Below, one piece after another: positions 17,241 through 64,000 of a stretch of DNA of 64,000 bases. Under the pieces are notes generated by a model. It saw only the letters and a list, made by a program, of their open reading frames with translations, was not told where the DNA came from and did no database searches. Made by a program: the position numbers and the translations under genes. This DNA comes from Bacteroidales bacterium (lineage in GTDB: Bacteria; Bacteroidota; Bacteroidia; Bacteroidales; UBA3824), in assembly GCA_017962175.1 (NCBI GenBank), contig JAGCVU010000003.1, forward strand, positions 21 to 64,020, given 5' to 3'. Positions within the stretch are counted from its first letter, which is position 1, and every line of letters starts with the position of its first letter.

Positions 17241-17312
17241 AATAATGCATAATTCATAATGCATAATTCATAATGCATAATTCATAATGCATAATTCATA
17301 ATTCATAATAAA
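17241..17312. repeat. longest heptanucleotide microsatellite, about 10 units of CATAATK
   Basis: AATAATGCATAATTCATAATGCATAATTCATAATGCATAATTCATAATGCATAATTCATAATTCATAATAAATA. Confidence 0.9.
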
Positions 17313-22018: not shown

Positions 22019-22028
22019 CGAAATTTAA

Positions 22029-22073
22029 TTCATAATGTTTAATGAATAATGCATAATTCATAATGCATAGTTA
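22029..22073. repeat. heptanucleotide array upstream of LRR paralog 1
   Basis: TTCATAATGTTTAATGAATAATGCATAATTCATAATGCATAGTTA. Confidence 0.8.
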
Positions 22074-26865: not shown

Positions 26866-27215
26866 ATAATTATGTTGTATGATAAATGCACCCCTTTGCG
26901 TGCGTAACTGACAGACACTTATTGATTTTGTATATAATGCAATCCTTTATAATGCTCCGCCTACTATATATGCATATAATTGCGCCACGAAAACGATATA
27001 ATTGTTTATATCTTGCTGTAAATACAATAGGTTAGCGTTTTTGGCTTGCTGTATTTTGTATGTTTTGCTCAACCATTAGTACACTGCGTTTTACGCGTTG
27101 TATTGATGGCGTCAATTAACCTAAATTTCAAACAGCAGGTGCAACAATTTGCACATAAATTGTGTTTATACCTATAGAATAGATTGTGCAAATTCATAAC
27201 CTTGTGTTTAACATA

Positions 27216-27275
27216 ATGAAAACAACCATGAAAACGACCAAATATACAACCATGAAGACTATCATGAAAATATTA
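27216..27275 (+). repeat. 12-nt tandem repeat carrying four in-frame ATG-AAR starts
   Basis: ATGAAAACAACC ATGAAAACGACC AAATATACAACC ATGAAGACTATC ATGAAAATATTA encodes MKTT MKTT KYTT MKTI MKIL. Confidence 0.85.
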
Positions 27276-33200: not shown

Positions 33201-36011
33201 TGGAATCTTCATGGCAACTTGGTTTACAATGGTGGTACTTTTATTGCTCCCACCGAGGGTACTATTAGTGTCATCAGAATGTGTGGCAACAATGAACAAA
33301 AAATTTATTCTAAAGATTTAAGTAAGATTGAAAAATTGCAAATCAATATTTTAGAGATTAATAACTCATCGCCTGAGGGTGTGGATGTTGTAATACCTAT
33401 TGATATTGTTCAGCATATCACGTTCGACAAAGGCGTGCTTAATGTCGACGACTTAAATGGTGGTGAGTTGCGTATTGTTGAATCTAATCCGGATGTTGAC
33501 GAAACTGTTAAAAATTACGATGTTAATAAGTTTATCAACGGTCCGCTTACCAAAAAGATACTTGCCAACGACTCTTGGACATTCCCTGTGGGTAGCCATT
33601 TAAACTGCGAAAAGATGACTGAGGTAAATCGTCTTGGACATTTTACGGTATACAACTATATTCCTACCGACAATAGTGGTTTTGGTTATGTAACAGTGCG
33701 TTACTTGTACAAACCTCACGACGAGAGTGGCAATACCGAAAAGTATGGCGCAGGTATTCTCGGTGTGGATAAATCTGAATATTGGACTGTAACTCCTACT
33801 ACAGCATCTACATTCGGTCTTAAGCTTCGTTGGGACGAAGTTAGCAATATTGCTAACACTGAAGCAGATATTAAGAATGTCTGCATTACCAATTACGATG
33901 GTGATTTGTGGAATAAGATAGAATCTGATGTTCATGCCAACTCTGCATATACTGGTCTTGTTACATCTATTCCTTCTGATATAGAACATCTTAAAGATCA
34001 AGCATATGTTTACACACTTGCCCATACTGGTGCATTAACATTCAATTGGGAAGGTAGTGTTAGCTCCAATTGGTTTGATAGCGACAACTGGAGCGGTCGT
34101 CAAGTGCCTTCGGAATCTGACTATGTAATTGTAGGCAGCCTTGGTCAACCTGATTGGAAATATCCTGTTATCAATACATCTGATAAAGCTAAGGCTAAAT
34201 ATCTGAAACTTACCGGCAATGCCAAACTTACTATTGATCCGCGTGCTCAACTTACAGTTATTACCGATGTGGTGGTAGACAACACAAGTTCACTTTTGCT
34301 TGCTGCTCCTAAAACATCTGTAGACGGCTCAGGCGATCAATCTATCAATCCTGCCGGTTCGTTGATTTACAAAGGTACATTTACCGGCAAACTCACCTTC
34401 CAGCGTTTTGTTCGTTGTTGGGAATATGAGCGTATGTGTGTGCCTGTTACAGGGTACAATGCTAACGTATCTAGCTTTAAATACGCTGCTTATCTCTATG
34501 GATACGACGAAACGTTTGATGTAGGCGGTGATAAATTTACCTATTCTTACGACGATACAGAATACTCAACAGACGATAATCCCTTGATTTTGGCTAAGGG
34601 TTGGTACAAATACGGTAATGATTATCCCAAAACTAACGATGTTACCGTGCCTTACCGCTATTTGAGCAGCAGCAAGTTGCCTGCTCATATACTCTCGTTT
34701 ACAGGTACACCTTTGCCTGATGGTAGCCAAAGCATTGTTACTACGGTTAATTTCACCAGCAACGACCGTGTGACTTCTTCGGGTTCTGCTCAAGATATGC
34801 TCGACGGATGGAACTTTGTGGCCAACCCGTTTGTATCGGCAGTGGATGCCGAGGCTCTCAAATTCCACAATGTGGATGCCACTATCTATCTGCACAATAG
34901 CAAAACAAATACTCCTATAGCATATTCGATCAACGGTGGTTTGCAACTTGGCGTTGTTACCGAAGATGAATATCGTTATATTCCCGCAGGTCAAAGCTTC
35001 TTTGTACATGCTACCGCTCAGGCTGCTCAAAACAATGGTACTGTAGAGTTCCCCAAAGAGAGCCGCAGTCATGGCAATTCAAAAACCGTGTTGAAATCAG
35101 GCAACCAACCGAGCAACAAAGGCATTGAAAAAATAGTATTCAAGACCACCGGCGGCGATTATGATTATCAAAGCTTGGTATATTTTGCAGCTGATGCTAC
35201 CGAGGCATTCGACTCTAAGTACGATGCTTATATGGTTTCGGCTTCTGCACCCAAATTACTCTCGTTTTACACTTACGGAAGCGACGAGAAAGTGGCTCTC
35301 ACTGCCAACGGTCTTCCTTTTGAGGTAAAAGACGGCGGCGAAGTTCGTATAGGATATTCTACCGTTACAGCAGGCACATACCGACTCACATTTCCGGTGT
35401 TGACTGTTGACGATGTTGATGTATATTTAGAAGATGCTCAAGAAGGTACTTCTACCAAACTTTCTGAAGGATTCTCTACTAAGATTGATGTGGAGGCTGG
35501 AAGCAACAAAACAAGATTTAAACTTGTTTTCCGCCAGAAACCCGAAGAACCTGTAGTGGTAGATCCTATTGTGGTAATACCCAGCGATCCTATTGAGGTT
35601 CCTGAAGAGCCTGTAATTGTTGACCCTGTGGTTATCAATCCGACGGTTCCCGATGTTACCGAGCCTGAAGATTTGCAGCCTGAAGTTAAACCTCTTCCCG
35701 AACCCTTCGACGATGGCGAATTGATGCATCTTTATCCGTCAGACCAGAGCGAAACCGACGTTGAGCGCGACATTCGTGTGAATGTTTACCCTGTGCCTTC
35801 GTATGGTGTGGTAACAGTTTCGCTTGGCGAGCTTATTCAGGAGACAGGCTCTGTCAAGATAGTAGTGGCAAGCATCTCGGGTCGTGTGGTTGTCAACAAG
35901 ACCGTAGCCGACGACCTTGTGGAAATTGACCTGACAGGTCGCCCGGGAGTATACATCGTAAGGATGATGACACCCACCAAGACAATAGTGAAGCGGATAG
36001 TAATTGAATAG
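27216..36011 (+). CDS. giant (about 2,930 aa) T9SS-secreted adhesin-like protein, predicted beta-helical, with a Pro/Val/Glu linker and a T9SS C-terminal sorting domain
   Basis: Uninterrupted 8.8 kb ORF. Signal peptide MKILAVMMITGICSGVYAQQ. SWNSGDWN...W and NWFDSDNWSGRQVPSESDYVIV motifs, and many short G/N/T/L-rich turns. Linker EEPVVVDPIVVIPSDPIEVPEEPVIVDPVVINP. CTD VNVYPVPSYGVVTVSL...GVYIVRMMTPTKTIVKRIVIE. The exact start (27216, 27228, 27252 or 27264) is uncertain. Confidence 0.85.
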   Translation: MKTTMKTTKYTTMKTIMKILAVMMITGICSGVYAQQVYYSWNSGDWNATGANGTWSLNSSEMLPATVPPTANDEVYIDESVTISTANAVAKKVHLNSSLTISGGVPQFEELVGNGNIFLTGDNYPQVSGNDYFTGMVALTGPFAMNRYVENYKNLSFNILSGVVEFKNSNLQIGTLRITGGGATISKALEVMDDIAVAEGCTFSSSATLKLNGNLWSSGSSVSFDGDFVFASQDRNQTLTLKSAAHFSKIIINKGTTNYYADIMADATGLLDLSDDAIDLQSGSFVVGSNITINDLSKNRDFTIPANAELKVSGGTVNSTRDINVSGALSVTSGSLNTSNNTIKLNGGSFNINGGQSSVKDVMDNNQASIFSQSAGTITMEKLELTSANSTFKTSGGSMTISRDLKLTCNHAVTGGTIIKDVNDGNFTISVPLYNLTINKGVNFNNSSFEIRGNLSIADNLNIGFNDRDISIAGNLTLGTGAQMSNMRSITFEGSRNSEINIPAAFTFPKKMIVDKSGNHSVIINGADVTVTEDLSVLAGNLNANGNAINALSNVTNDGNIVGTLNLNGDNKTISGSGTFDIINQNVATITLDSRITANRYDFTAGKCYLNSYVVTLKEGTNGGADHYFVNDGDKASAGLCLNVQGGSFNANQNVAEWPIGTSTYYAPAYVVAKESATFFNEYITMGAVGKQHPCLKTANGENLPCYWTVKTENKNTCQFILKFDYPSQVVQPLTSLALLDNSEWVESDIMRQDYEGDPVPCGVKTTSKKGWVYTVATGNYSKKTTTVKNVYECGEGPADYIVYTDRTLTFSGWSYQTPTSYWNQPKMNPTSATTFGIDNTSINFNNCTESATLKSGDYTAGVKKNSEGMRILIASAESNTSATVIGFYSSDWRIYGTSTPATPQAGDICIIEGYTFVNAADAINNVGKIIFQYREGQSELGRLRISVTGCKAGSISGKGEIQFMNDNSFYLDADCSEFDANDESFYHFSPNSSNNYRFHLDHDGVFPNVTIEHNSDDENAIFIYDRDLYVRNILNLMGTSSLKLDGHNVYCGTLAMGGYGGANVYFTPGNSDELVVGDIDFDFKHNVSADNGRYNNKLISLAATGNGGNSHNKLIITGNIVNKIQEPLKNERLNNKPNIYVGLDLYNTNDYVELWFAGDENQIVDVKTSNFKFNVKQMVIDKEPGSSIKLSDVKVNFNDGLAGGETDKKTLVLKSGEVIFDVEGQTVPLSKEGQNNKHYDFVIPEDATLTANKGVTLNVTSCKTGITLAGTLNLNDDAKLKNEGHFYYRLTNKTILNIAKAEFESKGDFCPDPSTASGRIKWNITSQNALVKIGGAECGYVTSNSQIDIAEESEITIPEGAEINFIGNSQNTTIFNVGIATDADCKFGPDGDPIATKFVFQNGKFEITSTPSLPNLLMQNTEVILQTLPLKVLGDLTLKNTATLDANGKDIDFKGQYFTIEGEDTFTPHGNKVTFSGTDQSVSGSTIKFYDVTISNTSGQVEFIYPHIITNELKITEGANLHDTGAGFPITVETKYTNNHGTYSGEGGIALNSGDQDHTINVLCSGNTSKLIVNNEEGVVVNDSGEDLTIDKSLVIQNGVLDMMTTTLVLGKEVTTVEGENFGINKMIVFESSNTRSGVKKIFSGDGTESEVLMPIGVTGKYTPATIHLSAITPDASIMISPVDGYHPAIVEDQEYGDEDFNLPDQANSLKFYWDVVANGVQNFNGWLVFHNHKEDYSAPNKGQYGYDHYVAARLLHDYVEWDKDHILTDSYDKGEIIFKDNFTMENDATITGQYTAGLVDDNGIGSIPGKLKVYVTKQSGDWNKAATWAVAKLNGSKIYLEDGDAVEDNNTNLTVPVEGPERGSIVFVYHNVDVKHNGINVFRTTIGRNSDEEQGKVFLNKTKSHRFGVVAGKGRLITESGSLPRGFYNLFVEAGGGTIEYAGSENYDVSMNVFNNVEFSGSGNRTLGPADLMVNGNFTANGTMSIINLSGATWNLHGNLVYNGGTFIAPTEGTISVIRMCGNNEQKIYSKDLSKIEKLQINILEINNSSPEGVDVVIPIDIVQHITFDKGVLNVDDLNGGELRIVESNPDVDETVKNYDVNKFINGPLTKKILANDSWTFPVGSHLNCEKMTEVNRLGHFTVYNYIPTDNSGFGYVTVRYLYKPHDESGNTEKYGAGILGVDKSEYWTVTPTTASTFGLKLRWDEVSNIANTEADIKNVCITNYDGDLWNKIESDVHANSAYTGLVTSIPSDIEHLKDQAYVYTLAHTGALTFNWEGSVSSNWFDSDNWSGRQVPSESDYVIVGSLGQPDWKYPVINTSDKAKAKYLKLTGNAKLTIDPRAQLTVITDVVVDNTSSLLLAAPKTSVDGSGDQSINPAGSLIYKGTFTGKLTFQRFVRCWEYERMCVPVTGYNANVSSFKYAAYLYGYDETFDVGGDKFTYSYDDTEYSTDDNPLILAKGWYKYGNDYPKTNDVTVPYRYLSSSKLPAHILSFTGTPLPDGSQSIVTTVNFTSNDRVTSSGSAQDMLDGWNFVANPFVSAVDAEALKFHNVDATIYLHNSKTNTPIAYSINGGLQLGVVTEDEYRYIPAGQSFFVHATAQAAQNNGTVEFPKESRSHGNSKTVLKSGNQPSNKGIEKIVFKTTGGDYDYQSLVYFAADATEAFDSKYDAYMVSASAPKLLSFYTYGSDEKVALTANGLPFEVKDGGEVRIGYSTVTAGTYRLTFPVLTVDDVDVYLEDAQEGTSTKLSEGFSTKIDVEAGSNKTRFKLVFRQKPEEPVVVDPIVVIPSDPIEVPEEPVIVDPVVINPTVPDVTEPEDLQPEVKPLPEPFDDGELMHLYPSDQSETDVERDIRVNVYPVPSYGVVTVSLGELIQETGSVKIVVASISGRVVVNKTVADDLVEIDLTGRPGVYIVRMMTPTKTIVKRIVIE

Positions 36012-51667: not shown

Positions 51668-53041
51668 CTATTCCCTTCTTAATGCGTTGAGCGGGTCAAT
51701 TTTTGCTGCTTTGTGAGCCGGATAAATTGATGCCGCAATGGTGGTGCATACTGCAATGGCTATCGACAGGAGTGCTAATTGCCACGAAAATACGAAAAAG
51801 TCGTTTTGTGTGCTAATGATGTTTGCCAATTGGTTGCGTACCAGCGATGATGCTGATTTTGCCGCCCAATATCCTGCAAATGAGCCAAAAATACCTCCTA
51901 TGGCACCGGTGATAGACGATTCGATGTAAAAAATGAGTTTGATCTGCCATTGTGTAGCTCCGATGGCTTTCATTATGCCTATCTCTTTTCTTCGTTCGTA
52001 TATTGCCATGGTCATTGTGTTGATTATGCCAAATACCGAAACCATTATGGCTATTATGCCAATGGCGGCAAGAAGCATATCAATGAGCATAAATATTTTT
52101 TCGATGTCTTCGAGTTTGTCGCCTACCGAAAATACTACAAAGCCCATCTCCTCTATTTTGTTTTTTACTGTTTTTAACTCTTTGAAATTGTATACTTTAA
52201 CGTATACCGAGTTGTATTGGTAAAGGTCGTTGTCGATGCCGTGCGATATGTCGTAAATTAGTTTTACATCTACCGAAGGAATTCTTTCACAAGTGGTGGA
52301 AGGCAAGAAAAATCCGCCCGAGAGCATTCCGGCAGTGAGGGTATTGTTTTCGGTGATGCCCACTATTTGCAATATTGTGGTATCGTTTTTAACAGGTATT
52401 TCGGGTGTGTTGAGGTCCATTTTTGACGGGTCGAACACTTTGGTGACGATTTGGATGTTGTGATTGATGATAGAATCGGCAGGAAGGGTGATGCCTCCGC
52501 TTACTTTGCCAAAATCGCCGTCGCCCTCGATTTTTATTCCAAGTTTAAACAATGCCGACTTGCTAATCACTATGCTTTGTTCGTTGTCTTTGGTGTAAAA
52601 ATGTCCGTAAGCCATATTGTCAAACGGCTTGAATGTGCCCATCAGAGCGGGAACCGATTTCATATTGGCTTTGGTGCTGCGACCGTTGAATATTACTTCG
52701 GCGTATTTGATGATTTCCGGAAAAACTACTGTTACCTGAGGAATTTTTTCAAATTCTATCACAGCCGAGTCGTTGAGCGGAACAATTTGTTCATTGTAAA
52801 TGGCGTTGCCGAGCGAACCGTAGTTTGAATAGTCGGCATCGCGGCGGCTAACTGTCATGCCGGTAAATATGTCGTTGCTTACCAGCGTGTTTGAAATATT
52901 TTGGCTGATGCCTTGTCCTATCGACACCATTGAACTGAGCGAGCCTATGCCGATAGCCACTCCGATGATGGTTACAGCGGTTCGAAACTTGTTCTGGGTC
53001 ATATTGTTGACCGCGAGCGATATGATGTCTGAAAATTTCAT
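51668..53041 (-). CDS. ABC transporter permease, FtsX/MacB-LolC type
   Basis: 457 aa. Order: N-terminal TM segment, large periplasmic domain, then the C-terminal FtsX domain (RRKEIGIMKAIGAT...). Confidence 0.85.
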   Translation of the reverse strand: MKFSDIISLAVNNMTQNKFRTAVTIIGVAIGIGSLSSMVSIGQGISQNISNTLVSNDIFTGMTVSRRDADYSNYGSLGNAIYNEQIVPLNDSAVIEFEKIPQVTVVFPEIIKYAEVIFNGRSTKANMKSVPALMGTFKPFDNMAYGHFYTKDNEQSIVISKSALFKLGIKIEGDGDFGKVSGGITLPADSIINHNIQIVTKVFDPSKMDLNTPEIPVKNDTTILQIVGITENNTLTAGMLSGGFFLPSTTCERIPSVDVKLIYDISHGIDNDLYQYNSVYVKVYNFKELKTVKNKIEEMGFVVFSVGDKLEDIEKIFMLIDMLLAAIGIIAIMVSVFGIINTMTMAIYERRKEIGIMKAIGATQWQIKLIFYIESSITGAIGGIFGSFAGYWAAKSASSLVRNQLANIISTQNDFFVFSWQLALLSIAIAVCTTIAASIYPAHKAAKIDPLNALRRE

Positions 53042-53733
53042 TGTCGGACGTTTGTGGTGGTTTTGATAATTTCGCCGTCTGATAAGAGAATCGTTTTGTG
53101 CGATACTCTGTAAGCGGTTTCTTTGTCGTGAGTTACCATTACTATGGTGATATTGTGCTTGCTGTTAAACATCTGCAAAAGCGCCATAATGTCGGCAGAT
53201 GTGGACGTGTCAAGGTTGCCGGTGGGTTCGTCGGCAAGTATTATTTTGGGTTTGTTGGCAAGTGCGCGGGCTATTGCCACACGTTGAGCTTCGCCGCCCG
53301 AAAGTTCTGAAGGATAGTGCAATGCGCGTTTGTAAAGTCCCATGTTGTATAGTAGTTCGCAGGCACGAGTTTCACGAAGTCGTTTTGGATAACCGCTAAA
53401 CATGAGTGGCAGTTTTACATTGTCGATAGCTGTGCGCCACGGTATTAGGTTAAACGATTGAAATATCATACCTACAGTAAAAGTGCGGTAGCGAGCCAAG
53501 CGTCGTTCGTTCATTTTCAATATGTTGCTGCCTTCGAATAGCACTTCGCCATCGGCACACGTGTCCATTCCGCCCAAAATATTGAGCAGAGTGGATTTGC
53601 CAGATCCCGATTTGCCTACAATTGACACAAATTCGCCTTCTTCGATGTCGAAATTTATGTCGCGCAGTGCGAAAATTTTGTTCTCTCCTTTCTTGTAAGT
53701 TTTAGAAAGTTTTTCTATTTTTATTAGTACCAA
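53038..53733 (-). CDS. ABC transporter ATP-binding protein (LolD/MacB-type)
   Basis: Walker A GKSGSGKST, signature LSGGEAQRVAIARAL, Walker B ILADEPTGNLD. It overlaps the permease gene by 4 nt. Confidence 0.9.
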   Translation of the reverse strand: MVLIKIEKLSKTYKKGENKIFALRDINFDIEEGEFVSIVGKSGSGKSTLLNILGGMDTCADGEVLFEGSNILKMNERRLARYRTFTVGMIFQSFNLIPWRTAIDNVKLPLMFSGYPKRLRETRACELLYNMGLYKRALHYPSELSGGEAQRVAIARALANKPKIILADEPTGNLDTSTSADIMALLQMFNSKHNITIVMVTHDKETAYRVSHKTILLSDGEIIKTTTNVRQ

Positions 53734-53805
53734 TTTTTTTGCTATTTTTACACCGTAAAATTACGAAAATTTTGTAACTTGTGATGCAAAAAAATATTAA
53801 TTAAT

Positions 53806-54690
53806 ATGCAGTTTAAAGATTATTACAAAATATTGGAGGTAGACAAGAATGCTACTGCCGATCAAATAAAGAAAGCTTACCGCCGTTTGGCAATGACTTA
53901 TCACCCCGACCGTAATCCGGGAGATGCCTCTGCCGAAGAAAAATTTAAGGAGATCAACGAGGCTTATGATGTGCTGAGCGATGCCGAAAAGCGCAAAAAA
54001 TTTGACCTTATGGCGGATGGTAAGGAAAATACCGAGGACTTTTACACCCGTTCGTCGCAAAAAACAACTTCGCATACCGATGATAGTTGGTTTTCAAGAG
54101 CGTCGAAAGGTGGATATTCGGAATTTTTCAACAACTTTTTTCGCAACAGTTCATTTTTCAAGGGCGACAACTTTACGGGCAAAATCACAATTTCGCTCGA
54201 GGAGGCTTATAAAGGTTCTACGCGCATTATCAAGGTGCTCGGCAAAGAGTTGCGCATAAAAATTAAACCCGGTATTCAAGACGATACTTTGTTAAAAATT
54301 CCCGAACAAGGCTATCCCGGCGTGGCAGGCGGACGAAATGGCGACCTTTATGTGCGTGTGGGCGTTGACAATAAGAGTCCGCTATTTATTCGTCGCGGCG
54401 ATGAGTTGTTTTCGGAGGTTTATGTTGATATTTATACCGTTATGTTGGGTGGATATATTATGATTTCTACTTTTAGCGGTAATATCAAGATTGCCGTTCC
54501 CGCCGGAGTAGAATATGGCAAACAGTTGAGAATCAAAGGTAAAGGTATGCCTGTATACAATACTCCCGGAGCTTTTGGCGACCTTTTTGTGAAAATAAAA
54601 TACTCGCTGCCTAAAAATATTACCGACAAGGAGCGTGCTCTTATAGAGCAACTTCGCGAGATGCGTACTAATTATGTTAAAGGCAGTTGA
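53806..54690 (+). CDS. J-domain protein, CbpA-like (no zinc-finger domain)
   Basis: J domain DYYKILEVDKNATADQIKKAYRRLAMTYHPDRN plus DnaJ C-terminal domains. The CxxCxGxG repeats are absent. Confidence 0.85.
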   Translation: MQFKDYYKILEVDKNATADQIKKAYRRLAMTYHPDRNPGDASAEEKFKEINEAYDVLSDAEKRKKFDLMADGKENTEDFYTRSSQKTTSHTDDSWFSRASKGGYSEFFNNFFRNSSFFKGDNFTGKITISLEEAYKGSTRIIKVLGKELRIKIKPGIQDDTLLKIPEQGYPGVAGGRNGDLYVRVGVDNKSPLFIRRGDELFSEVYVDIYTVMLGGYIMISTFSGNIKIAVPAGVEYGKQLRIKGKGMPVYNTPGAFGDLFVKIKYSLPKNITDKERALIEQLREMRTNYVKGS

Positions 54691-54739
54691 TTTTAGATGC
54701 AAATGTGTATATTTGCAAAAATTTTTTTACGATACAACT

Positions 54740-55348
54740 ATGAAAAATATTAGAATTATAGCACTGCTGATATTGGCATTGTCGGCTCAGACAACGTTTG
54801 CGCAGTTTGAAGATTTTGAAGACGAGGAAAAATCAACCGTTAAGGTAAACACCGACGGCACTCGCAAAACCGACCGTTCTTTTATGGATAAATATGCCTT
54901 TGGCGGCAGTTTTGGCTTTGGTTTCTCGTCGCAATTTGGGTATATTGAACTTGTTCCGTTTTTCGGCTATCGATTTAATAATTATGTAACCGCCGGAGTA
55001 ACTGCTACTTATATGTACTCGTATTATAGCACAAGCTGGAGTTACGAAGCGTTTGACAGTTCGGTATATGGCGGAGGCGTTTTTACAGATGTTTATCCGT
55101 TTAAGTTTCTTGTAGTTCACGCCGAAGCACAAGTGCTCAATTTCGACAATATTTCCGATGGTTACACTCTTAACTTTGACAACGGTCGTGAATGGGACGT
55201 GCCTTTGATCGTAGGTTTGGGTTACCACCAAAGTTTCAACGAGCGTTGCGGCATCAACTATATGTTGTTGTTTAATATAAACGATTCCAATAAGTTGCGC
55301 TACAACGTTTACTCTAATCCTATCGTTAGGATTACCTTTGTATTTTAG
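54740..55348 (+). CDS. small outer-membrane beta-barrel protein (hypothetical)
   Basis: Signal peptide MKNIRIIALLILALSAQTTFAQ. Alternating aromatic/Gly strands and a C-terminal ...VRITFVF beta-signal. Confidence 0.55.
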   Translation: MKNIRIIALLILALSAQTTFAQFEDFEDEEKSTVKVNTDGTRKTDRSFMDKYAFGGSFGFGFSSQFGYIELVPFFGYRFNNYVTAGVTATYMYSYYSTSWSYEAFDSSVYGGGVFTDVYPFKFLVVHAEAQVLNFDNISDGYTLNFDNGREWDVPLIVGLGYHQSFNERCGINYMLLFNINDSNKLRYNVYSNPIVRITFVF

Positions 55349-57168
55349 AAGAATTCTACGTCGTTGTCGTCGTCGGTGCCTTCGGGTGTGAGTCCGTCGT
55401 TGAGGTCGGGTGTTTCCTCGTTGAGTGCCTGACGGTGTACAATGCGTTCTGTTTCCATAGTGTAACGGTCTTCGAGACTCTTGAGGTTTTCAGCCTTATT
55501 GTGACGTAGCACGTTGATAGTATCGCTGTCGAGTTTGGCGTATATGCTGTTGAGTTGAGTTACAATTTCGAGCATAATCTTTTCGAAGAAATCGTAGTAT
55601 TTAACCTGCTCAACCGACGACTTGATTTCGCTCGAGAGATTGAGACTGAGTTTTGAGTTTTCGATAAGTACGGTTTCGATTTTTTCGTTGTGCTCGGCTA
55701 TTGATTCGAGTATGCCTGCAATCTTAGCCGACAATTCTTTTAGATTGTCGTTGATTTGATTGCCGTCTTCCTCGTGATTGATTTCCTGAAGTTTTTTGCT
55801 GATGTTCTGAGCCTGACGGAAGAATAGTGTTACATCGTTGAGGTTTTCAGAGATGGTGTCGGTGAGTGATTTGATCTCCTCGATGATGCGGTTGATGCCG
55901 CGTTCGTCGTTTTGGTTGGTGAAATTGCCAAGTACCTCCTTGATTTTGCCTTCCAACGACACGTGAACGGTTTGAATTTCGTTTATTTTGTCGTTTTTCT
56001 CCTCGATGGTCTGGCTTATGGTGTTGATTTCGTTGCCAAAATCTTCGTTGGCTGCAATAAGGCGTTTAAGTACCGAAGTGGTGCCTTTAAGATGGTCTTC
56101 AACATCTTTGAAGTAGCAATCGGTGAGGTCGTTGTTGCCCACAAATTCGTTGCTGAGCTGCGAAATCACGCTCATATCTTCGCTGATATCCCAGAATTTG
56201 CGCATAATAACGGCAAATGCTTTTTGGTATTCTTTGTTGGTGTTGATAAGTTGTGCCACCTGAATACCAGCAATGTCGCGTATTTGTAGAAACTGTTGTG
56301 CCGATTCTGAAAGGTCCATTTTGCCGTCGCTTCCGGTTTTGATGTCCATAGCGGCAAGTTCCTTGATGATATTTTTGTGGGTAGCCTGCACGTGTTCCAT
56401 TTTTTGACGAATAATGTCGTGGTATTGCAGGTTGGTAATTATCTTGTTAACGCTGTCGAAATAGTTTTGAGTGCGTTTGGTGAGTTCGGGAAGTTTCTGT
56501 GCAGCAACAGCTTGCTTGTTTTTGAGCATAATAATGCTGTCGTTGATTTGTCCCGTTACTCGGTCGATGTCGAGAATATTTTTTTTGCGTATTTCGATTA
56601 ACTTGCCCGACGAAAGGCGCGTAACGTTTTTTACCATCAACATCGATTCTGAAATTTTGGGAAGAATAATTTTCAACTTGTTGATTTCGTCGGTGATGCT
56701 GTCGATAAGGTCACTCACTTTTTTGATGTTCTCGCTTTCGGAGTAAGCCACGTTGAGTTTGAGGTTTACAAGCAAGAAGTTGAGTGTAAGTATGTTGAGG
56801 TTGAAGTTCTTTAACGGCACAAACACAAGATTGAGCGCGGTGTGCATTTTTTCAAGTCCGCGTATGCTCTTTAAAATCTTGTTTTTGAGCATATTAATCT
56901 TGTTGTTGAGCGAATCTTGCAAGCCGAGCAACTCGTCGAAAAATTTTTCGTGAGCATCGCCGGCTATTATGTCGTATATTTGTTCGGTTTGACCCGAAAT
57001 TACTTTTGCGTCTTTGTAAAACTTTTTGAGATAGTTGTTGAGAGATAGAAAATCTTCGGCAGAACATTCGTTCAATGCAGTGATTTTTACGTCGATATCC
57101 GAAAATACCAGTATTATCTCCTTTATAGATTTTTGCGATTTTTCGTCGGTTATATTTTCCATTTGCAT
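55345..57168 (-). CDS. large coiled-coil hypothetical protein with a chemoreceptor-like LQYHDIIRQKMEHV motif and an acidic tail
   Basis: 607 aa ORF, highly helical and heptad-like, with no TM segment. The C-terminus reads PEGTDDDNDVEFF. Confidence 0.55.
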   Translation of the reverse strand: MQMENITDEKSQKSIKEIILVFSDIDVKITALNECSAEDFLSLNNYLKKFYKDAKVISGQTEQIYDIIAGDAHEKFFDELLGLQDSLNNKINMLKNKILKSIRGLEKMHTALNLVFVPLKNFNLNILTLNFLLVNLKLNVAYSESENIKKVSDLIDSITDEINKLKIILPKISESMLMVKNVTRLSSGKLIEIRKKNILDIDRVTGQINDSIIMLKNKQAVAAQKLPELTKRTQNYFDSVNKIITNLQYHDIIRQKMEHVQATHKNIIKELAAMDIKTGSDGKMDLSESAQQFLQIRDIAGIQVAQLINTNKEYQKAFAVIMRKFWDISEDMSVISQLSNEFVGNNDLTDCYFKDVEDHLKGTTSVLKRLIAANEDFGNEINTISQTIEEKNDKINEIQTVHVSLEGKIKEVLGNFTNQNDERGINRIIEEIKSLTDTISENLNDVTLFFRQAQNISKKLQEINHEEDGNQINDNLKELSAKIAGILESIAEHNEKIETVLIENSKLSLNLSSEIKSSVEQVKYYDFFEKIMLEIVTQLNSIYAKLDSDTINVLRHNKAENLKSLEDRYTMETERIVHRQALNEETPDLNDGLTPEGTDDDNDVEFF

Positions 57169-57260
57169 CGTTTTTTTAATTCATTTCTACAAATATACGG
57201 AAAAATTTACAAAGTGTATGCTTTTTTCCAAAATTTTTTAATGCAAAAAAAATACCAATC

Positions 57261-58202
57261 CTATTCTTGTTCCGCAGTGCTTTCTATAAGATAACTATTT
57301 CGATCTGACGATGAGCGTGCTACCAATTCGGCAGTAAAACCAGTTAAAAATAGCTGTGTGCCGAATATTATGGTCAAAAGTCCAAAGTAAAACAGCGGAC
57401 GGTCGGTCATTTGATATTGGTTCCACGCAAATTTTGCTATACTTAAATAGGTGAGAATGCCAAAGCCGATGAGGAAACTTAGTGAACCTAACAATCCAAA
57501 AAAGTGCATGGGACTTTTGCCAAATTTGCTTACTATGCTAACCGTTAATAAATCAAGATAACCGTTTACAAAGCGTTCAAGACCAAATTTTGTAACGCCG
57601 TATTTGCGTTTGCGGTGCTGAACCACTTTTTCGCCAATGCGACGGAAACCGGCTTGTTTTGCCAATACAGGTATGTAGCGGTGCATTTCGCCGTAAACTT
57701 CGATACTTTTTACCACGGTGTTGCGATAGGCTTTGAGTCCGCAGTTGAAGTCGTGAAGTTTGATGCCCGTAACCAAGCGTGCTGTAAAATTGAAAAATTT
57801 GCTCGGAACTGTCTTGCTGATAGGGTCGTAACGTTTTTTCTTCCAACCAGATACTACGTCAAATTTTTCTTCTTTTACCATGCGGTAGAGTTCGGGAATT
57901 TCGTCGGGACTATCTTGCATATCGGCGTCCATGGTTATTACCACATCGCCCTGAGCTTTTTTGAATCCTGTGTTGAGAGCGGCAGATTTGCCATAGTTGC
58001 GACGAAATTTTATGCCTTTTATATGACTGTCGGTAGAAGACATTTTCTCTATGATTTCCCACGAGGTATCGGTGCTGCCGTCGTCTACCATTATAACTTC
58101 GTAGCTAAAATTGTTTTCGTTCATTACGCGGGTAATCCACTCGCGGAGTTCGGGTAAAGATTCGTCTTCGTTGTATACGGGTACTATAACTGAAATGTCC
58201 AT
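57261..58202 (-). CDS. family 2 glycosyltransferase (polyprenyl-phosphate glycosyltransferase, GtrB/DPM1-like)
   Basis: VIVPVYNE...IMVDDGSTD...TMDADMQD, with two C-terminal TM segments. Confidence 0.9.
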   Translation of the reverse strand: MDISVIVPVYNEDESLPELREWITRVMNENNFSYEVIMVDDGSTDTSWEIIEKMSSTDSHIKGIKFRRNYGKSAALNTGFKKAQGDVVITMDADMQDSPDEIPELYRMVKEEKFDVVSGWKKKRYDPISKTVPSKFFNFTARLVTGIKLHDFNCGLKAYRNTVVKSIEVYGEMHRYIPVLAKQAGFRRIGEKVVQHRKRKYGVTKFGLERFVNGYLDLLTVSIVSKFGKSPMHFFGLLGSLSFLIGFGILTYLSIAKFAWNQYQMTDRPLFYFGLLTIIFGTQLFLTGFTAELVARSSSDRNSYLIESTAEQE

Positions 58203-58208
58203 TTTAAG

Positions 58209-58721
58209 TTACTTCTTTTGAAATTGTGAAATCCAAGCGCTGAATAGTGAAAACAGCGCGATAATAAACAAGTTGTATGTAAAATACGAGATTATCGTGA
58301 TAGGAATTTTTAATGCTTCAATGATACCAGCTGCATTTTGTAAGTCTTGCTCAGAAAAGGCTTTCATCTGTTTCATCATCTCCATCGACTGTTCTGTGAT
58401 AGTGTCTAAGGCGCTTGTATGAACAAATTTGAGGTCAACAACCAAATAGAGTGATGCAATTATTGTTGCACCAATGCCACACACTATGCCGTATAATGTA
58501 AGTTGCATAAACGGAGTAGGGTCAGGTTTCCTGAATGCCGACCATACTTTTTGACCAAAAAGGATTCCTGACGACAAGGCTATGTATACTATTATTCCCC
58601 CGAATGATATTTGTTTGGTAATCAGTTCGGTAATGAACATAGCTAATGTCATTCCAATTCCAGTGTATGCGCCGTAGGTAAGTGCGTGACGGAGAAAGTC
58701 TATTTTTGCCGGTTTCTGCAT
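58209..58721 (-). CDS. DUF4199-like membrane protein
   Basis: 170 aa with four TM segments. It is the conserved Bacteroidota partner immediately upstream of the GT2 gene. Confidence 0.65.
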   Translation of the reverse strand: MQKPAKIDFLRHALTYGAYTGIGMTLAMFITELITKQISFGGIIVYIALSSGILFGQKVWSAFRKPDPTPFMQLTLYGIVCGIGATIIASLYLVVDLKFVHTSALDTITEQSMEMMKQMKAFSEQDLQNAAGIIEALKIPITIISYFTYNLFIIALFSLFSAWISQFQKK

Positions 58722-58809
58722 TATGTTTTGAATGTTTCAGTGCGCAAAATTATAAAAATATCGAAAAATATCACTATCTTTACACCGAAATAACCAACAT
58801 AAGCAAATT

Positions 58810-59334
58810 ATGGCAAAATTGTTAAAATATATTCCGTCGCTCTTGTCGGTATTGGCTGTGGTAGCCATTGTGTTGCCCACCGGTTGCGGATTTATGGGCG
58901 CGGGTAGGAGTGGACAAATGAAGGATTCGCTCCAAAATGATAGTGCGGCTCGAGCACAAAAATTGTTAGAAATAGATACTTGTACAGCATATTTCCGCCG
59001 TCATACGTGGGCAGACAAAAAACACAATATCACTTTTGACCGTATTGAAATTCTCTCGGATAGTGCAGCTATTGAATATGCCGCCACTCGACACGGTTTT
59101 GAGGGGCGTAAGCATATCATTATAAATTTGGAACCTACCACAGCCACAATGGCGGTGACTGATACTACAGAAATATGGATTGTAAACCCTGCTTTTAGAT
59201 CAGGCAAGTCAAAAACCCATTATATTCAAGGTAAAGTGGGCGATGTGTCTGATTTTGAGTATAATACCATTATCAAACTTGCCACACAGGGTAAAATAAT
59301 TCTTTATCTTCAACAACTCGATATTGAACTATGA
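58810..59334 (+). CDS. hypothetical lipoprotein
   Basis: Signal peptide and lipobox (LPTGCGF). No further motif recognised. Confidence 0.5.
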   Translation: MAKLLKYIPSLLSVLAVVAIVLPTGCGFMGAGRSGQMKDSLQNDSAARAQKLLEIDTCTAYFRRHTWADKKHNITFDRIEILSDSAAIEYAATRHGFEGRKHIIINLEPTTATMAVTDTTEIWIVNPAFRSGKSKTHYIQGKVGDVSDFEYNTIIKLATQGKIILYLQQLDIEL

Positions 59335-61128
59335 AACCGCTCCTACGCTGTAAATATCATCGATAAGAGCGGCGTATTTTTCGGTAACGGCTTTGCGTTT
59401 AAGTTTTTGGGTTTGAGATAGTTCGCCGGTTTCTGCACTCCAAACATCGGGTACAAGACGATAACGCTTAACCTCTTCGTGCTTGCCGTTGAGTTTGTTG
59501 ATGCGTTTTACCTCGCTGTCGATAAGGGCAACAACTGTGGGGTTGGAGATTATCTCTTCGTTTGAAGCGAATTTTACGCCCGACTGAGCCATATAAGCCG
59601 CAAGTTCCTCAAAATTAGGCGAAATCACTGCGCTTGCAAATTTTTGGTTTTCGCCCACAATCATTATTTGCGAAATGTATTTTGATTCTTTAAACTTGCC
59701 TTCAAGCATTTGAGGAGCAATATATTTGCCGCCTGAGGTTTTGAAAACGTCTTTTTTGCGGTCGGTGATGTGGAGGCAGTTGCCCGCCGAAATGTAGCCG
59801 ATGTCGCCGGTGCGGAAATATCCGTCTTCGGTAAACACTTGTGCGGTGAGTTCGGGGTTTTTGTAATAGCCTTTCATCACGTTGGGACCCTTTACAAGTA
59901 TCTCGCCGTCCTCGTCGGTCTTAACATCCTCGTTGCTTACGATAGGACCAACCGATGTGAACTTGTGTCCGCCTTTACCGGGAACAGAGTGCGCAATAAT
60001 GGGCGATGTTTCGGTAAGTCCGTATCCCTCTTGCACTTTGATGCCCGCAGCCCAAAGCAGACGGCTGAGCGAGATAGGTAATGCAGCACCGCCGCAGCCA
60101 AAGAATTTCATCTCGCCACCAAAATAGTATTTGCGCCAACGACGATAGACAAACGCATCGTAAACACGGTTCATTATGTTGTAAATTAAACCGTTAGCGT
60201 TGTAGTGCTCAAAACGGTAGCCGGCTTCTACTGCGCGGTCGAACATTTTTTTGCGCCATCCTGTAAGTTTTGCGCCCTCTTTCATAATGTTCTCGATAAT
60301 CTTTTCGGCAATACGCGGAACGGTGTTGCAACCGTTGGCGTGAATGTCGCAAATGTCGCGGACAATAGTTCCGAGGTTTTGCGCATAGTAGATTCCTATG
60401 CCGTTGTATTGGTACATATAGCAGAAACAGCGTTCGTAAACGTGGCAGAGGGGCAAAATCGAGATGATTTTGTCTTTGCCCTGCTCCAAAGCGCCGATAA
60501 CGTTGCTTGCTGCGGTAAAGTTGCTTACAAAATTCTTGTGGGTGAGCATCACGCCTTTTGAAAGTCCTGTTGTGCCTGATGTGTAGATGATTGACACCAC
60601 GTCGTCTTCGTTGACCGATGCTTTGATGTTTTCAAGTTCTTTTTGGTAATAAACCTTGCTTTTTTCGCCGAGAGCCAAAACTGTTTCCATATTCTCAACG
60701 CCTTCGACATCGGTAAATGAAAACACCTTTTCTATTGTTTTGATTTTTGGAACAACCGACGACATACGACGGTAAGCCGAAGCGTCTGCCACAAACACCA
60801 TTTTGCACTCGCAGTGGTTGAAGATATATTCGTAATCATCGGCACCAATGGTTGGATATACAGGCACGTGAATAGCACCAGTTTGCGCAATTGCCATATC
60901 TACAAAGTTCCACTCGGGACGGTTGTTGGATACTGTAACCACAGTGTCGCCTTTTTTGATGCCGAGAGCCAACAGACCGTAACTCAATAGGTTAACCTTA
61001 TTGCGATAATCGTTGTAACTATATGTGCGCCATCCGTTGCCCGAAACTTTGCAGGCAAGAGCGTCGTTGCGATTGTATTTTTCGCAGCAATAGTCCAAAA
61101 TGTCGAATATTCTTTTTACGTCTGTCAT
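59329..61128 (-). CDS. long-chain-fatty-acid--CoA ligase (AMP-dependent synthetase)
   Basis: AMP-binding motif IIYTSGTTGLSKGVMLTHKN, plus GYGLTETS and TGDIG...DRKKD. Confidence 0.9.
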   Translation of the reverse strand: MTDVKRIFDILDYCCEKYNRNDALACKVSGNGWRTYSYNDYRNKVNLLSYGLLALGIKKGDTVVTVSNNRPEWNFVDMAIAQTGAIHVPVYPTIGADDYEYIFNHCECKMVFVADASAYRRMSSVVPKIKTIEKVFSFTDVEGVENMETVLALGEKSKVYYQKELENIKASVNEDDVVSIIYTSGTTGLSKGVMLTHKNFVSNFTAASNVIGALEQGKDKIISILPLCHVYERCFCYMYQYNGIGIYYAQNLGTIVRDICDIHANGCNTVPRIAEKIIENIMKEGAKLTGWRKKMFDRAVEAGYRFEHYNANGLIYNIMNRVYDAFVYRRWRKYYFGGEMKFFGCGGAALPISLSRLLWAAGIKVQEGYGLTETSPIIAHSVPGKGGHKFTSVGPIVSNEDVKTDEDGEILVKGPNVMKGYYKNPELTAQVFTEDGYFRTGDIGYISAGNCLHITDRKKDVFKTSGGKYIAPQMLEGKFKESKYISQIMIVGENQKFASAVISPNFEELAAYMAQSGVKFASNEEIISNPTVVALIDSEVKRINKLNGKHEEVKRYRLVPDVWSAETGELSQTQKLKRKAVTEKYAALIDDIYSVGAVS

Positions 61129-61193
61129 GGTTTATTACTTTTTATAATTTTAGTTTTTGAAAAATCACTCGGTCGATTTTTTTTATTACGCTG

Positions 61194-61201
61194 CAAAGGT
61201 A
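61194..61201 (-). promoter_or_regulatory. -7 box (TACCTTTG on the minus strand) for the acyl-CoA ligase gene
   Basis: The plus strand reads CAAAGGTA, about 66 nt upstream of the ATG at 61128. Confidence 0.45.
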
Positions 61202-61441
61202 TTATTATTTTTCGAATTTGAAAAATATTTATTTCAAAAATTTTTCTTTAATTTATGTTAAATATTTTATTATTAGTTATTTATCTTGGTGTAAAATTAT
61301 AAAGATTTTTAGAATATTAATTTTCTGCAAACAAAAGTCGAAATTTTTTAACGTACTATTTTGGACTTCAAAAATCTTTCGGTCGAAAAAATCGGAGTGT
61401 AAAATCCTATGCAAAATGTTTTTTTATACAAAAAAATACGA

Positions 61442-61449
61442 TATTTTTG
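61442..61449 (+). promoter_or_regulatory. -7 box TATTTTTG for argR
   Basis: 29 nt upstream of the trimmed argR ATG. Confidence 0.5.
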
Positions 61450-61477
61450 CAGTCGAAAGTGCATAAATATACACCTT

Positions 61478-61948
61478 ATGAACAGCAAGCAAAACCGCAT
61501 ATCTATTATTAGTCAGATAATTGAGAGCGAAACAGTGCGCTCTCAAAACGACATAATCGATCGCCTTCGCGAACGTGGTATAACCCTTACACAAGCAAGC
61601 CTAAGTCGCTATCTCAAAGAGATTCAAGCCTCGCGCATACCCGACGGCAACAACGGATATATTTATAAAATTCCGCCCGAAACCGCCAAATCAACCGCCG
61701 TGCTCAGCAACGAAGTGGTTTCGGTAGAGTTTTCGGGTAACAATATGGCAGTGTTGAAAACCATTTCGGGTTATGCCAACGCTGTTTCGGCGCAAATAGA
61801 TGCCAAAATGCTTCCTCCCATTGCCGGCACCATCTCTGGCGATGATACTATCCTTATCATCATCCGCGACGGGTTTTCAAAACGTCAGGTTAAGGAATAT
61901 TTGGTAAAGGAATTTCAGTATATCAAGAATAAGTTTTTGAATGAATAG
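61478..61948 (+). CDS. argR: arginine repressor
   Basis: Winged-helix N-domain (QNDIIDRLRERGITLTQASLSRYLKEI) and C-terminal oligomerisation/arginine-binding domain (GTISGDDTILIIIRD). The start was trimmed to MNSKQNRISI. Confidence 0.85.
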   Translation: MNSKQNRISIISQIIESETVRSQNDIIDRLRERGITLTQASLSRYLKEIQASRIPDGNNGYIYKIPPETAKSTAVLSNEVVSVEFSGNNMAVLKTISGYANAVSAQIDAKMLPPIAGTISGDDTILIIIRDGFSKRQVKEYLVKEFQYIKNKFLNE

Positions 61949-61976
61949 GAGCGAGGTAATCCTCTCTCCCGTTTTG

Positions 61977-62010
61977 ATCATACATATATATAATGTGTAT
62001 GATTTTTTTT
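61977..62010 (+). terminator. Rho-independent terminator of argR
   Basis: ATCATACA...TGTATGAT stem followed by T8. Confidence 0.7.
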
Positions 62011-62101
62011 GCTTCTTACTTTATTTGTTAATAAATGTTAAAACCTACTTTTTGGTAGAAAAATCTTTTAAAATAATTTGGATAGTATACTTTTTAGTTG
62101 T

Positions 62102-62109
62102 TATCTTTG
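62102..62109 (+). promoter_or_regulatory. -7 box TATCTTTG upstream of the toxin-like gene (about 115-nt structured leader)
   Basis: Exact TAnnTTTG match. The leader contains the 8-bp hairpin GTCAAAAG/CTTTTGAC (62114-62141). Confidence 0.45.
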
Positions 62110-62231
62110 CACCGTCAAAAGAAATGAAACCGACTTTTGACAGAGGTTCTTTGATGGATGGTTTTATGAGTATTGGTTTGAGTTAACAATTTGCCAAAAG
62201 GCGATATTGCCTTAATTAAAACCTTAAAGAT

Positions 62232-62582
62232 ATGAATAAAATCATTTTACAGGACTTTTTGTCCTACGTAGTTACTAACCTTAACGGTGTTTTTGTTGTT
62301 CCCCGTTCACACTCGTTTGACCCGGAAGACAGACACAAAGACCCGAAGGCAGTTTGCGCAAGGCACGAACTCGGAGAGGTAAGGAAGGTAGTAAAAACAG
62401 TTGTAAGGTCTTTGACCGTTGGCGACTTTGTTACTATCCAACCCGACTTGAAGAACAACCTCGGCGACCTTTACGTTTTTCGCAAAAGGTTCAAAGGGGT
62501 GATGCTTTACGTAAAACTTCAAATTAGTACACGAACCGGACAGGTTATCTGCCACTCGTTTCACGAGTGGACCAACAGGTAA
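62232..62582 (+). CDS. MqsR-like toxin (putative ribosome-independent mRNA interferase)
   Basis: The C-terminal half aligns by eye with E. coli MqsR. VVRSLTVGDFVTIQ matches VIIGLSESDFYKSM, LGDLYVFRKRFKGVMLYVKLQI matches WQDVYRPRLVTGQVYLKITV, and VICHSFHEW matches LIVSFKEK. The toxin gene precedes its partner, as in mqsRA. Confidence 0.5.
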   Translation: MNKIILQDFLSYVVTNLNGVFVVPRSHSFDPEDRHKDPKAVCARHELGEVRKVVKTVVRSLTVGDFVTIQPDLKNNLGDLYVFRKRFKGVMLYVKLQISTRTGQVICHSFHEWTNR

Positions 62583-62596
62583 CCGAGCAGGTTTCA

Positions 62597-62629
62597 GGAG
62601 CGGTTATAGAAAACCGCTCCATTTTTTTT
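62597..62629 (+). terminator. strong intrinsic terminator between the toxin-like and antitoxin-like genes
   Basis: GGAGCGGTT-ATAGAA-AACCGCTCC forms a perfect 9-bp stem followed by A-T8. Confidence 0.7.
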
Positions 62630-62650
62630 AACTTTTTAAAACTAACAAAA

Positions 62651-63613
62651 ATGGAAAGCCCGTTTACCGGCGGAAAAGCCGAGTTGGTAATCTCAAAAGA
62701 GGTTTTTGAGTACCGCAAAGAAAAATTCACTTACTACAACATTCAGTACAAGTGTGTGGATACAGGCGAGTTTTTTGCCCCGTTAGAAATCGAAAACTCC
62801 AACCTTTTGCAGGTGTACAACCAATACCGCGCTCTGCACGGTATTCCCTTCCCCGACGAAATTACCGCAATTAGAAAACGTTACGGACTTTCGCGCCCTC
62901 AGATGTCAAAAATCCTTGGTTTTGGCGAGCATCAACTTAAACGCTACGAAGACGACGGCGAAGTGCCGAGCGAAAGCAACGGAAAAACCCTTTCGGCTAT
63001 CAAAAACCCGAAAGTTTTTGAAGTCTACTTGCTCAACGCTAAAAACCAACTTACTACCAAAGAGTTTGATAATATTCTATCAAACCTCAAACACGTAACC
63101 AATTACGATACTACTATATATAAAAGTGTTGTCCGCAGCAAGCAAAACGGCTTGGGCGAACTTAATGCCCAAAAGGCTGTGCAAGCGGCTGAGTATGTTA
63201 TCGACCGTGGACAATCGGTATCTGCCCAAAAACTCAATGCCACGCTTTTGTATGCCGATATGCTTGCCTACGCTGTTAGCGCCAAGTCGATTACGGGGTT
63301 GCTCTATCAAAAAAATGTCCGCAACAATATCGACCCTCACAACTTTTTTGACTTTTACAGAGCCATTCCCGAAGTTGATTTTGCCTTAGACAGCAACGGC
63401 AGAATTACCCTCTCGCTCAATTCTATCCAAATATTTTTTGAGGAACTCACCAAAAAAGAGACTGAAATTTTGGATTATGTGCTATCCATCTTTAACGATA
63501 TGGACGAAACCGCAATTTCTGAAAAAATCAAAAACGATTTTGCCAATATCAAGCCTGATAATTTCGACTTTGATATTGCTTTTTCGCTTGACTTAGTAAA
63601 AAACTTTTTGTAA
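62651..63613 (+). CDS. MqsA-like HTH (XRE) protein with a degenerate zinc ribbon and an approximately 200-aa C-terminal extension (possibly Panacea/DUF4065-like)
   Basis: The N-terminal 120 aa are collinear with MqsA. SPFTGGKAEL matches CPVCHQGEMV, YKCVDTGEFF matches YCVHCEESI, and IRKRYGLSRPQMSKILGFGEHQLKRYEDDGEVPS matches VRKKLSLTQKEAAEIFGGGVNAFSRYEKGNAQPH. The C-terminal KLNATLLYADMLAYAVSAKSITGLLYQK resembles the KLQKLLYYA...ITG..Y block of DUF4065. The start was set at MESPF (62651). Confidence 0.5.
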   Translation: MESPFTGGKAELVISKEVFEYRKEKFTYYNIQYKCVDTGEFFAPLEIENSNLLQVYNQYRALHGIPFPDEITAIRKRYGLSRPQMSKILGFGEHQLKRYEDDGEVPSESNGKTLSAIKNPKVFEVYLLNAKNQLTTKEFDNILSNLKHVTNYDTTIYKSVVRSKQNGLGELNAQKAVQAAEYVIDRGQSVSAQKLNATLLYADMLAYAVSAKSITGLLYQKNVRNNIDPHNFFDFYRAIPEVDFALDSNGRITLSLNSIQIFFEELTKKETEILDYVLSIFNDMDETAISEKIKNDFANIKPDNFDFDIAFSLDLVKNFL

Positions 63614-63643
63614 ATTTGAAAACAACATTAAAACTAAACTATT

Positions 63644-64000
63644 ATGGCAGATTTCATTTTCGACAACATTGATGCAGACAAAAGCAGACGCTACATTTAC
63701 GGTACTTATATCGAAATGGCGTTTCATAATTTTTTCATCACCCTCCAACATATTTATAAATGTGTCAAAGGTGTTTATCCTCCTCTTCAAGACGAAGATT
63801 TTGGCAAAGACGAAAACACCGAGTTTATCTTCGATGATTTTAAACAGGCCGAAGAAAAAGAACGTCTTAAATTGCTGTTGAATAAGCACTTCCCCTTTTT
63901 AAGAGTAATTGAAGACGATTTTAACGAATCCAACAAAATAGACATTATCAAAAAGTTTTTGGAGTTCTTAAAAGTGCTTCGCAATGCGGCTGAGCACGAT
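63644..64000 (+). CDS. cas13b: Cas13b-like (type VI-B CRISPR effector) N-terminal fragment; the ORF continues beyond the window
   Basis: Absent from the ORF track because there is no stop in the window. It has 119 codons from ATG 63644: MADFIFDNIDADKSRRYIYGTYIEMAFHNFFITLQHIYK...LLLNKHFPFLRVIEDD...FLEFLKVLRNAAEHD. The block order YGxYxxMAxxN / HFPFL / RNxxxH (R113, H118) matches remembered Cas13b N-termini and the Bergeyella HEPN1 pair R116/H121. Confidence 0.65.
   Translation, partial: MADFIFDNIDADKSRRYIYGTYIEMAFHNFFITLQHIYKCVKGVYPPLQDEDFGKDENTEFIFDDFKQAEEKERLKLLLNKHFPFLRVIEDDFNESNKIDIIKKFLEFLKVLRNAAEHD

Follow-up and report, generated by a model that had tools for sequence, protein, structure and literature searches.

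The analysed stretch of DNA, 64,000 nucleotides long and called the window below, ends within an open reading frame on the plus strand (63644-64000). The frame is composed of an ATG and 118 further sense codons, 119 open codons in total, and is still open at the window edge. Since an in-frame TAA occupies positions 63635-63637, the ATG at 63644 is the first possible start. The frame is missing from the mechanical ORF list because ORFs running off the source are not listed. It had been pointed out in an initial annotation of the window as 119 uninterrupted codons reaching position 64000, and its sequence and translation are exactly as given there. Profile and PDB matches, together with identical contigs, mark this region as the start of cas13b; it encodes residues 1-119 of 1029 and takes in most of the N-terminal HEPN1 domain. 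The HEPN1 motif RNAAEH (R113, N114, H118) can be read directly from the sequence at 63980-63997 (plus strand). The initial annotation had interpreted it as a HEPN motif near the Bergeyella pair; the HEPN1 pair of BzCas13b is R116/H121 (bioRxiv 10.1101/092577), at about the same position as R113/H118.

The 119-residue fragment matches the NCBIfam Cas13b profile NF038190, with residues 15-118 aligned to model positions 4-118 of 1066 (37.5 bits, E = 6.9e-10). Its score is under the profile cutoff solely because the fragment represents 11% of the protein. Two PADLOC Cas13b models also match it (E = 4.6e-12 and 7.4e-12). In a phmmer search of PDB sequences, the sole match is the N-terminus of PbuCas13b (6DTD, E = 7e-4), and the HFPFL block is present in the alignment. 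The proposal that the frame encodes a Cas13b N-terminus is borne out by these matches, with profile E-values from 7e-10 to 5e-12. No Pfam family matches the fragment or the full-length Cas13b, and the missing Pfam match of the fragment is therefore uninformative. Judged by its sequence, the 119-codon ORF is a genuine gene start and not a chance ORF. A protein search with the fragment returned one match, the 110-residue protein P0001, and it took a search with the extended protein to bring up the full-length relatives. P0001 is encoded on an ENA contig of 1154 bp, in which the Cas13b N-terminal peptide MADFIFDKIDSDKSKRYIYGTYIEMAFH follows 67 unrelated residues and is succeeded by divergent sequence; this short contig is probably rearranged or mis-assembled.

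Everything past codon 119 was read from other assemblies. An exact-protein look-up of the 116-residue upstream neighbour (window 62232-62582) recovered four metagenome contigs, L002-L005, that extend beyond the window edge. In BLASTN comparisons, L002 overlaps the window over 11,769 bp (window 52232-64000) at 99.98% identity, with two mismatches. The overlaps of the other contigs with the window are 2,998 bp at 99.97% identity (L004), 2,194 bp at 100% (L005), and 1,931 bp at 100% (L003). All four contigs encode the same 119 N-terminal residues as the window and read on to one identical protein of 1029 residues. These overlaps argue strongly that the 1029-residue protein is the product of the window's own gene, and the contigs evidently belong to the same strain.

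The conceptual translation of the complete gene shows a 1029-residue Cas13b with intact HEPN1 (R113/N114/H118) and HEPN2 (R963/N964/H968) motifs. The ORF continues past the window as had been predicted, but it is slightly shorter than the 1,050-1,250 residues expected; its length lies inside the family range. On NF038190, the protein scores 411.6 bits against a curated cutoff of 150 (E = 7e-123, model positions 4-1037 of 1066), and the PADLOC Cas13b match has an E-value of 7e-120. The protein contains exactly two RxxxxH motifs, RNAAEH at 113-118 and RNCFAH at 963-968, located towards opposite ends; the second one is the motif that the initial annotation had anticipated near the C-terminus. In a 32-sequence Cas13b alignment including 31 diverse relatives, R113, H118, R963, and H968 are invariant, and N964 occurs in at least 90% of the sequences. 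E117 is positioned directly before the catalytic histidine of HEPN1, where other Cas13b proteins have serine or threonine.

The relative P0002, which is 97% identical overall and shares 115 of the 119 window residues, served as a structural proxy. Its AlphaFold2 model has a mean pLDDT of 79.7 and a pTM of 0.67. In a Foldseek comparison with the PDB, the model has 11 significant matches, every one in the Cas13b lineage (PspCas13b, PbuCas13b, BzCas13b, and also Cas13bt3 and Cas13h1), and the next match has an E-value above 2. The model indicates that the protein carries the Cas13b fold. Both checks that had been put forward for the full ORF, a Cas13b profile search and a structure prediction, point to Cas13b.

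A CRISPR array is located outside the window, starting 25 bp past the cas13b stop codon in L002. It is formed by 18 copies of a 36-nt repeat, GTTGTGGAAACCTGCGTTTTGGTAGGGAATTACAAC, on the cas13b strand, with a period of 65-66 bp and 17 spacers of 29-30 nt each; four of the 18 repeats contain point mutations. The initial annotation had suggested looking downstream for such an array, with a 36-nt repeat and spacers close to 30 nt in length. As it had also stated, the window itself contains no array: the repeat has no copies there, and no other CRISPR-like array is present. For the repeat RNA, a hairpin is predicted in which GUUG pairs with CAAC at the base and GUUUUG forms the loop (-13.1 kcal/mol, z = -3.8). 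Smargon et al. describe VI-B arrays by a 36-nt repeat, a poly-U open loop, GUUG/CAAC ends, 30-nt protospacers, and no cas1/cas2 (bioRxiv 10.1101/092577), and the L002 array conforms to this description. An Rfam scan of the window and L002 identified no family.

The gene order of the locus is argR, an 81-residue ORF, a gene for a 116-residue MqsR-like protein, a gene for a 320-residue MqsA-like/Panacea protein, cas13b, the array, a gene for a 91-residue protein, a gene for a weakly ParE-like protein of 103 residues, and argH. The 116-residue putative toxin (62232-62582, plus strand) has a weak similarity to MqsR (PF15723, E = 9e-4, under the cutoff). Its partner, the 320-residue putative antitoxin (62651-63613, plus strand), is composed of an MqsA-like zinc-ribbon/HTH N-terminus (TIGR03830, E = 2e-14) and a Panacea (SocA-like) C-terminus (PF13274, E = 3e-4), both matches being under the curated cutoffs. 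The mechanical ORF for this gene is 348 residues long and starts from a GTG at 62567. The two genes constitute a toxin-antitoxin-like pair (window 62232-63613) on the same strand as cas13b, with gaps of 68 and 30 bp. The gap between the 320-residue gene and cas13b, an A+T-rich spacer spanning 63614-63643 (plus strand) according to the gene coordinates, is compatible with co-transcription of cas13b and the upstream pair. The 103-residue protein is weakly ParE-like and, with the 91-residue protein, forms a second toxin-antitoxin-like pair.

The unit of cas13b and the array is thereby flanked by two toxin-antitoxin-like pairs within the argR-argH interval (window 61409-64000, L002 9247-16837), and it resembles a small islet of defence genes that has been inserted among arginine genes. 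Loci L001, L006, L007, and L010 have the same arrangement. The Cas13b proteins of the last three are 70-77% identical to the one described here. L001, found by a contig scan, belongs to a GTDB yak-rumen Bacteroidales MAG and has an identity of 82%. The same neighbourhood in these four loci indicates that the locus is a stable chromosomal feature of the lineage.

Elsewhere in the window, the genes sampled are housekeeping and surface-protein genes. The latter include BspA-type LRR proteins encoded at 19867-21972 and 23172-25655, and a Listeria-Bacteroides-repeat protein at 17405-19639, for which an exact-protein look-up gave no match. Short tandem repeats of 7/14 nt, TAATGCATAATTCA and its variants, are located in intergenic regions around the surface-protein genes (15220-15396, 17229-17309, and 22026-22069). 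The LRR array itself accounts for the 69/264-nt coding repeat at 20874-21706. An ORF of 2941 residues with a GTG start (27186-36011, plus strand) has no Pfam match at E 1e-5.

Adaptation genes were searched for around the array. No Cas Pfam family, including those of cas1/cas2, was detected in the called genes of L002, which reach about 11 kb upstream and about 2.3 kb downstream, in those of L006 to 8 kb downstream, or among the window ORFs scanned. None of the neighbouring proteins (179, 81, 116, 348/320, 91, and 103 residues) matches csx27 or csx28 in PADLOC, a collection that may hold no such models. The remark of the initial annotation that these genes are not visible upstream holds, and none was found downstream either. 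The 116-, 320-, 91-, and 103-residue neighbours contain neither a hydrophobic/transmembrane segment nor an RxxxxH motif. The sole hydrophobic neighbour is the 81-residue ORF. It is separated from cas13b by the genes of the upstream pair, and L001 has no ORF of 60 residues or more at that place. On these grounds, the 81-, 116-, and 320-residue proteins were rejected as candidates for Csx27/Csx28. VI-B loci without Csx27/Csx28 have been documented (PMC11662929), and the missing genes are therefore not disqualifying for a type VI-B assignment as a whole.

We conclude that the window very probably breaks off after the first 357 bases of cas13b, within a chromosomal type VI-B CRISPR-Cas locus of a rumen-type Bacteroidales bacterium. 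The upstream pair allows for an extended reading, in which Cas13b is working and the MqsR-like and MqsA-Panacea proteins are its functional accessory in the regulatory role of Csx27/Csx28, so that the locus would represent a distinct VI-B variant. The pair is on the same strand at short distances from cas13b and is retained beside it in relatives at 70-88% protein identity, and neither csx27 nor csx28 was found. However, all the loci that bear the pair also retain the whole argR-argH neighbourhood, and the linkage may reflect shared descent only. Toxin-antitoxin genes, moreover, commonly cluster with defence genes. The 53% identical relative P0012 has the same repeat and lacks the pair, which shows that the pair is not an obligate partner of cas13b, and VI-B loci without Csx27/Csx28 are documented, as noted above. 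We consider the accessory role improbable. There is similarly little probability that the clade is a VI-B variant of distinct function, either because a toxin-antitoxin module, in place of a membrane protein, modulates Cas13b or serves as its backup, or because the RNase itself behaves differently, for instance in its collateral activity. The features that inspire this reading are the acidic HEPN1 residue, the missing Csx27/Csx28, the repeat that is invariant down to 53% protein identity, and the possible co-transcription with the pair.

Searches with the full-length protein delineate a tight clade, P0002-P0013, with identities of 51-97% and lengths mostly of 969-1096 residues. Past the clade, the identity drops sharply to about 30% for the Cas13b proteins of Prevotella, Dysgonomonas, and Tannerella. 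The HEPN1 signature of the clade is RN[AST][AVL]EH[DN], as opposed to R[ND]-x-[YFH]-[ST]-H in most other aligned Cas13b proteins, with the catalytic R, N, and H kept. The initial annotation had proposed a possible divergent subtype from the AAE residues of the motif. RNAAEH does mark a divergent clade, but the profile, fold, repeat, and locus plan are those of an ordinary type VI-B system, and a new subtype is unsupported. Members P0005 and P0006 are named "type VI-B CRISPR-associated RNA-guided ribonuclease Cas13b" by NCBI. A literature search on rumen Cas13b and on the repeat sequence found nothing specific to the clade or the repeat.

Several relatives differ in the state of their loci. P0012 (1265 residues, 53% identical; L008 11855-13967 and L009 5722-7900) is accompanied by exactly the same 36-nt repeat, an unusually strong conservation for such protein divergence. 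Its locus has Mu-like genes (DUF3164, AAA_22) on one side and, some 0.8 kb beyond the array, a cas6b gene on the other, and the L009 array has one extra spacer, at position 2, relative to that of L008. In L006/L007 (11316-12667), the loci of a 77% identical relative, one repeat is 35 nt long due to a 1-nt deletion, and spacers 13 and 14 are a tandem duplicate. In L010, a single repeat (10350-10385) follows the cas13b gene of P0009 (969 residues, 70% identical); the array is collapsed and the gene is open. The HEPN1 arginine of P0004 (82% identity) is changed from R to C. P0013 (L011 365-3964) is Cas13b-like over about 830 residues at 51% identity. Its HEPN1 motif is destroyed, with LRNAAEH changed to LQKASIN, and an AAA_23/AAA_15/AAA_21 ATPase (Pfam E = 1e-18) takes the place of HEPN2 at the C-terminus. 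L011 is a 4.7-kb contig on which a 244-residue ORF without a Pfam match comes after the P0013 gene, and no repeat is present on it. Two readings of P0013 are offered: a remnant in decay to which an inserted defence ATPase has become fused, or a nuclease-dead Cas13b scaffold that has been exapted.

The repeat is identical across all the clade loci, and of the 50 unique spacers none is common to different lineages. The combination of the same repeat with wholly different spacers argues for spacer turnover and continuing acquisition. Outside the arrays, neither the window nor the retrieved loci contain a match to any spacer, and self-targeting was rejected. Exact matches to viral contigs were sought with eight 24-nt spacer cores, seven of which had none, and a BLAST comparison of the complete array with phage and plasmid records produced chance-level matches only. 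Spacer 13 matches the IMG/VR contig L013 (IMGVR_UViG_3300031998_002172) at 28 of 29 positions (3745-3773), where the flanks are not repeats. The protospacer is located in a gene of the head module, an ORF of 239 residues on the minus strand (phrog_5824). The major head protein gene (phrog_29, E = 3e-38) is two genes downstream of this ORF, and all the long ORFs of L013 are on the minus strand. Because of this placement, a crRNA transcribed in the direction of cas13b would be antisense to the phage mRNA, as RNA targeting requires. The orientation agrees with RNA targeting, and as a single case with a 50% chance of arising by accident it is suggestive rather than statistical. In the target RNA, the protospacer is directly preceded by a C, and its 3' flank reads GAA.

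These observations bear on the possibility that the Cas13b homologue is an inactive or decaying remnant, a pseudogene or a gene beside a fossil array, instead of a working defence. Decay does occur in the relatives, as exemplified by the single repeat of L010, the R to C change in P0004, and the loss of both HEPN motifs in P0013; in addition, the locus has no adaptation or accessory genes, and the repeat mutations of L002 described above could be signs of erosion. Opposed to this, the 1029-residue ORF is intact in four independent assemblies with all the catalytic residues present, the spacer sets of lineages with a common repeat are wholly different, which implies ongoing acquisition, and one spacer has a near-perfect phage protospacer. 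A remnant is therefore very unlikely. The notion that the ORF is a non-CRISPR HEPN RNase, an abortive-infection or toxin protein that merely resembles the Cas13b N-terminus, could appeal to the RxxxxH motifs common to many HEPN proteins and to the toxin-antitoxin genes beside the ORF, but it is refuted by the end-to-end Cas13b profile match well over the curated cutoff, the fold that matches Cas13b-lineage structures only, and the adjacent canonical VI-B array, and retains almost no probability.

For the type VI-B locus that we favour, a mode of action can be outlined from the systems characterized by Smargon et al. (bioRxiv 10.1101/092577). The array would be transcribed in the direction of cas13b, and Cas13b itself would cut the transcript into crRNAs, in each of which the spacer is at the 5' end and the repeat hairpin at the 3' end. 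When the spacer pairs with a phage transcript complementary to it, the two HEPN domains would join into one RNase site, which would cut the target and bystander RNA and halt the infection. Since the locus is without adaptation genes, new spacers are presumably acquired in trans via the Cas1/Cas2 proteins of another CRISPR system.

The locus adds a verified and fairly compact (1029 residues) Cas13b lineage from rumen Bacteroidales. Its identity to other Cas13b proteins is only about 30%, and that to the nearest one of solved structure about 22%. The repeat, a set of spacers, and a phage target of one of them are available together with the lineage, which provides raw material for the discovery of RNA-targeting tools and for linking rumen phages to their hosts. 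The understanding of type VI systems is unchanged. The recognition of Cas13b from the raw sequence alone proved sound.

The closest known systems include the loci of two Cas13b proteins of the same clade from Bacteroidales MAGs, P0005 (GCA_017540625.1, 77% identity) and P0006 (yak-rumen MAG RGIG10234, 76% identity), which share the argR-argH site, the flanking genes, and the repeat. They differ in their spacers, which are entirely distinct, and in the lengths of their Cas13b proteins, 1096 and 1023 residues. The VI-B1 variants without Csx27 (Prevotella sp. MA2016 group, associated with RT-Cas1/CorA; PMC11662929) are VI-B systems of gut Bacteroidota in which the small membrane gene is likewise missing; the RT-Cas1, Cas2, and CorA of these variants were not detected here within about 10 kb upstream and about 2.3 kb downstream of cas13b and the array. 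The compact Cas13bt/Cas13X proteins, miniature effectors in which parts of the helical domains are missing, were rejected as an assignment, as the solved Cas13bt3 chains have about 690-740 residues, compared to 1029 residues here, and TM-scores of 0.26-0.31, compared to 0.64-0.71 for PspCas13b and PbuCas13b.

The best match of solved structure is PspCas13b of Prevotella sp. P5-125 (8WF8/8WF9), both in sequence (E = 2.6e-63) and in fold (TM-score 0.68-0.71). The two proteins have in common the two terminal HEPN motifs and a 36-nt repeat in the crRNA, whereas the identity in the structural alignment is about 22% and the deposited PspCas13b chain has 1094 residues. The interior of the HEPN1 motif is AAE here and x-[YFH]-[ST] in other Cas13b proteins. 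BzCas13b of Bergeyella zoohelcum (6AAY; VI-B1, Csx27) is not detected with the 1029-residue query in phmmer at E 1e-3 and has the same fold with a TM-score of 0.51; csx27 does not adjoin the gene described here. PbuCas13b of Prevotella buccae (6DTD; VI-B2, Csx28), the second nearest structure by sequence (E = 1.6e-24), also has the same fold (TM-score 0.64), and here no csx28 is adjoining. The architecture of the Pbu- and Bz-type repeats, 36 nt in length with a GUUG...CAAC frame and a poly-U loop, is shared by the array of the rumen Bacteroidales locus.
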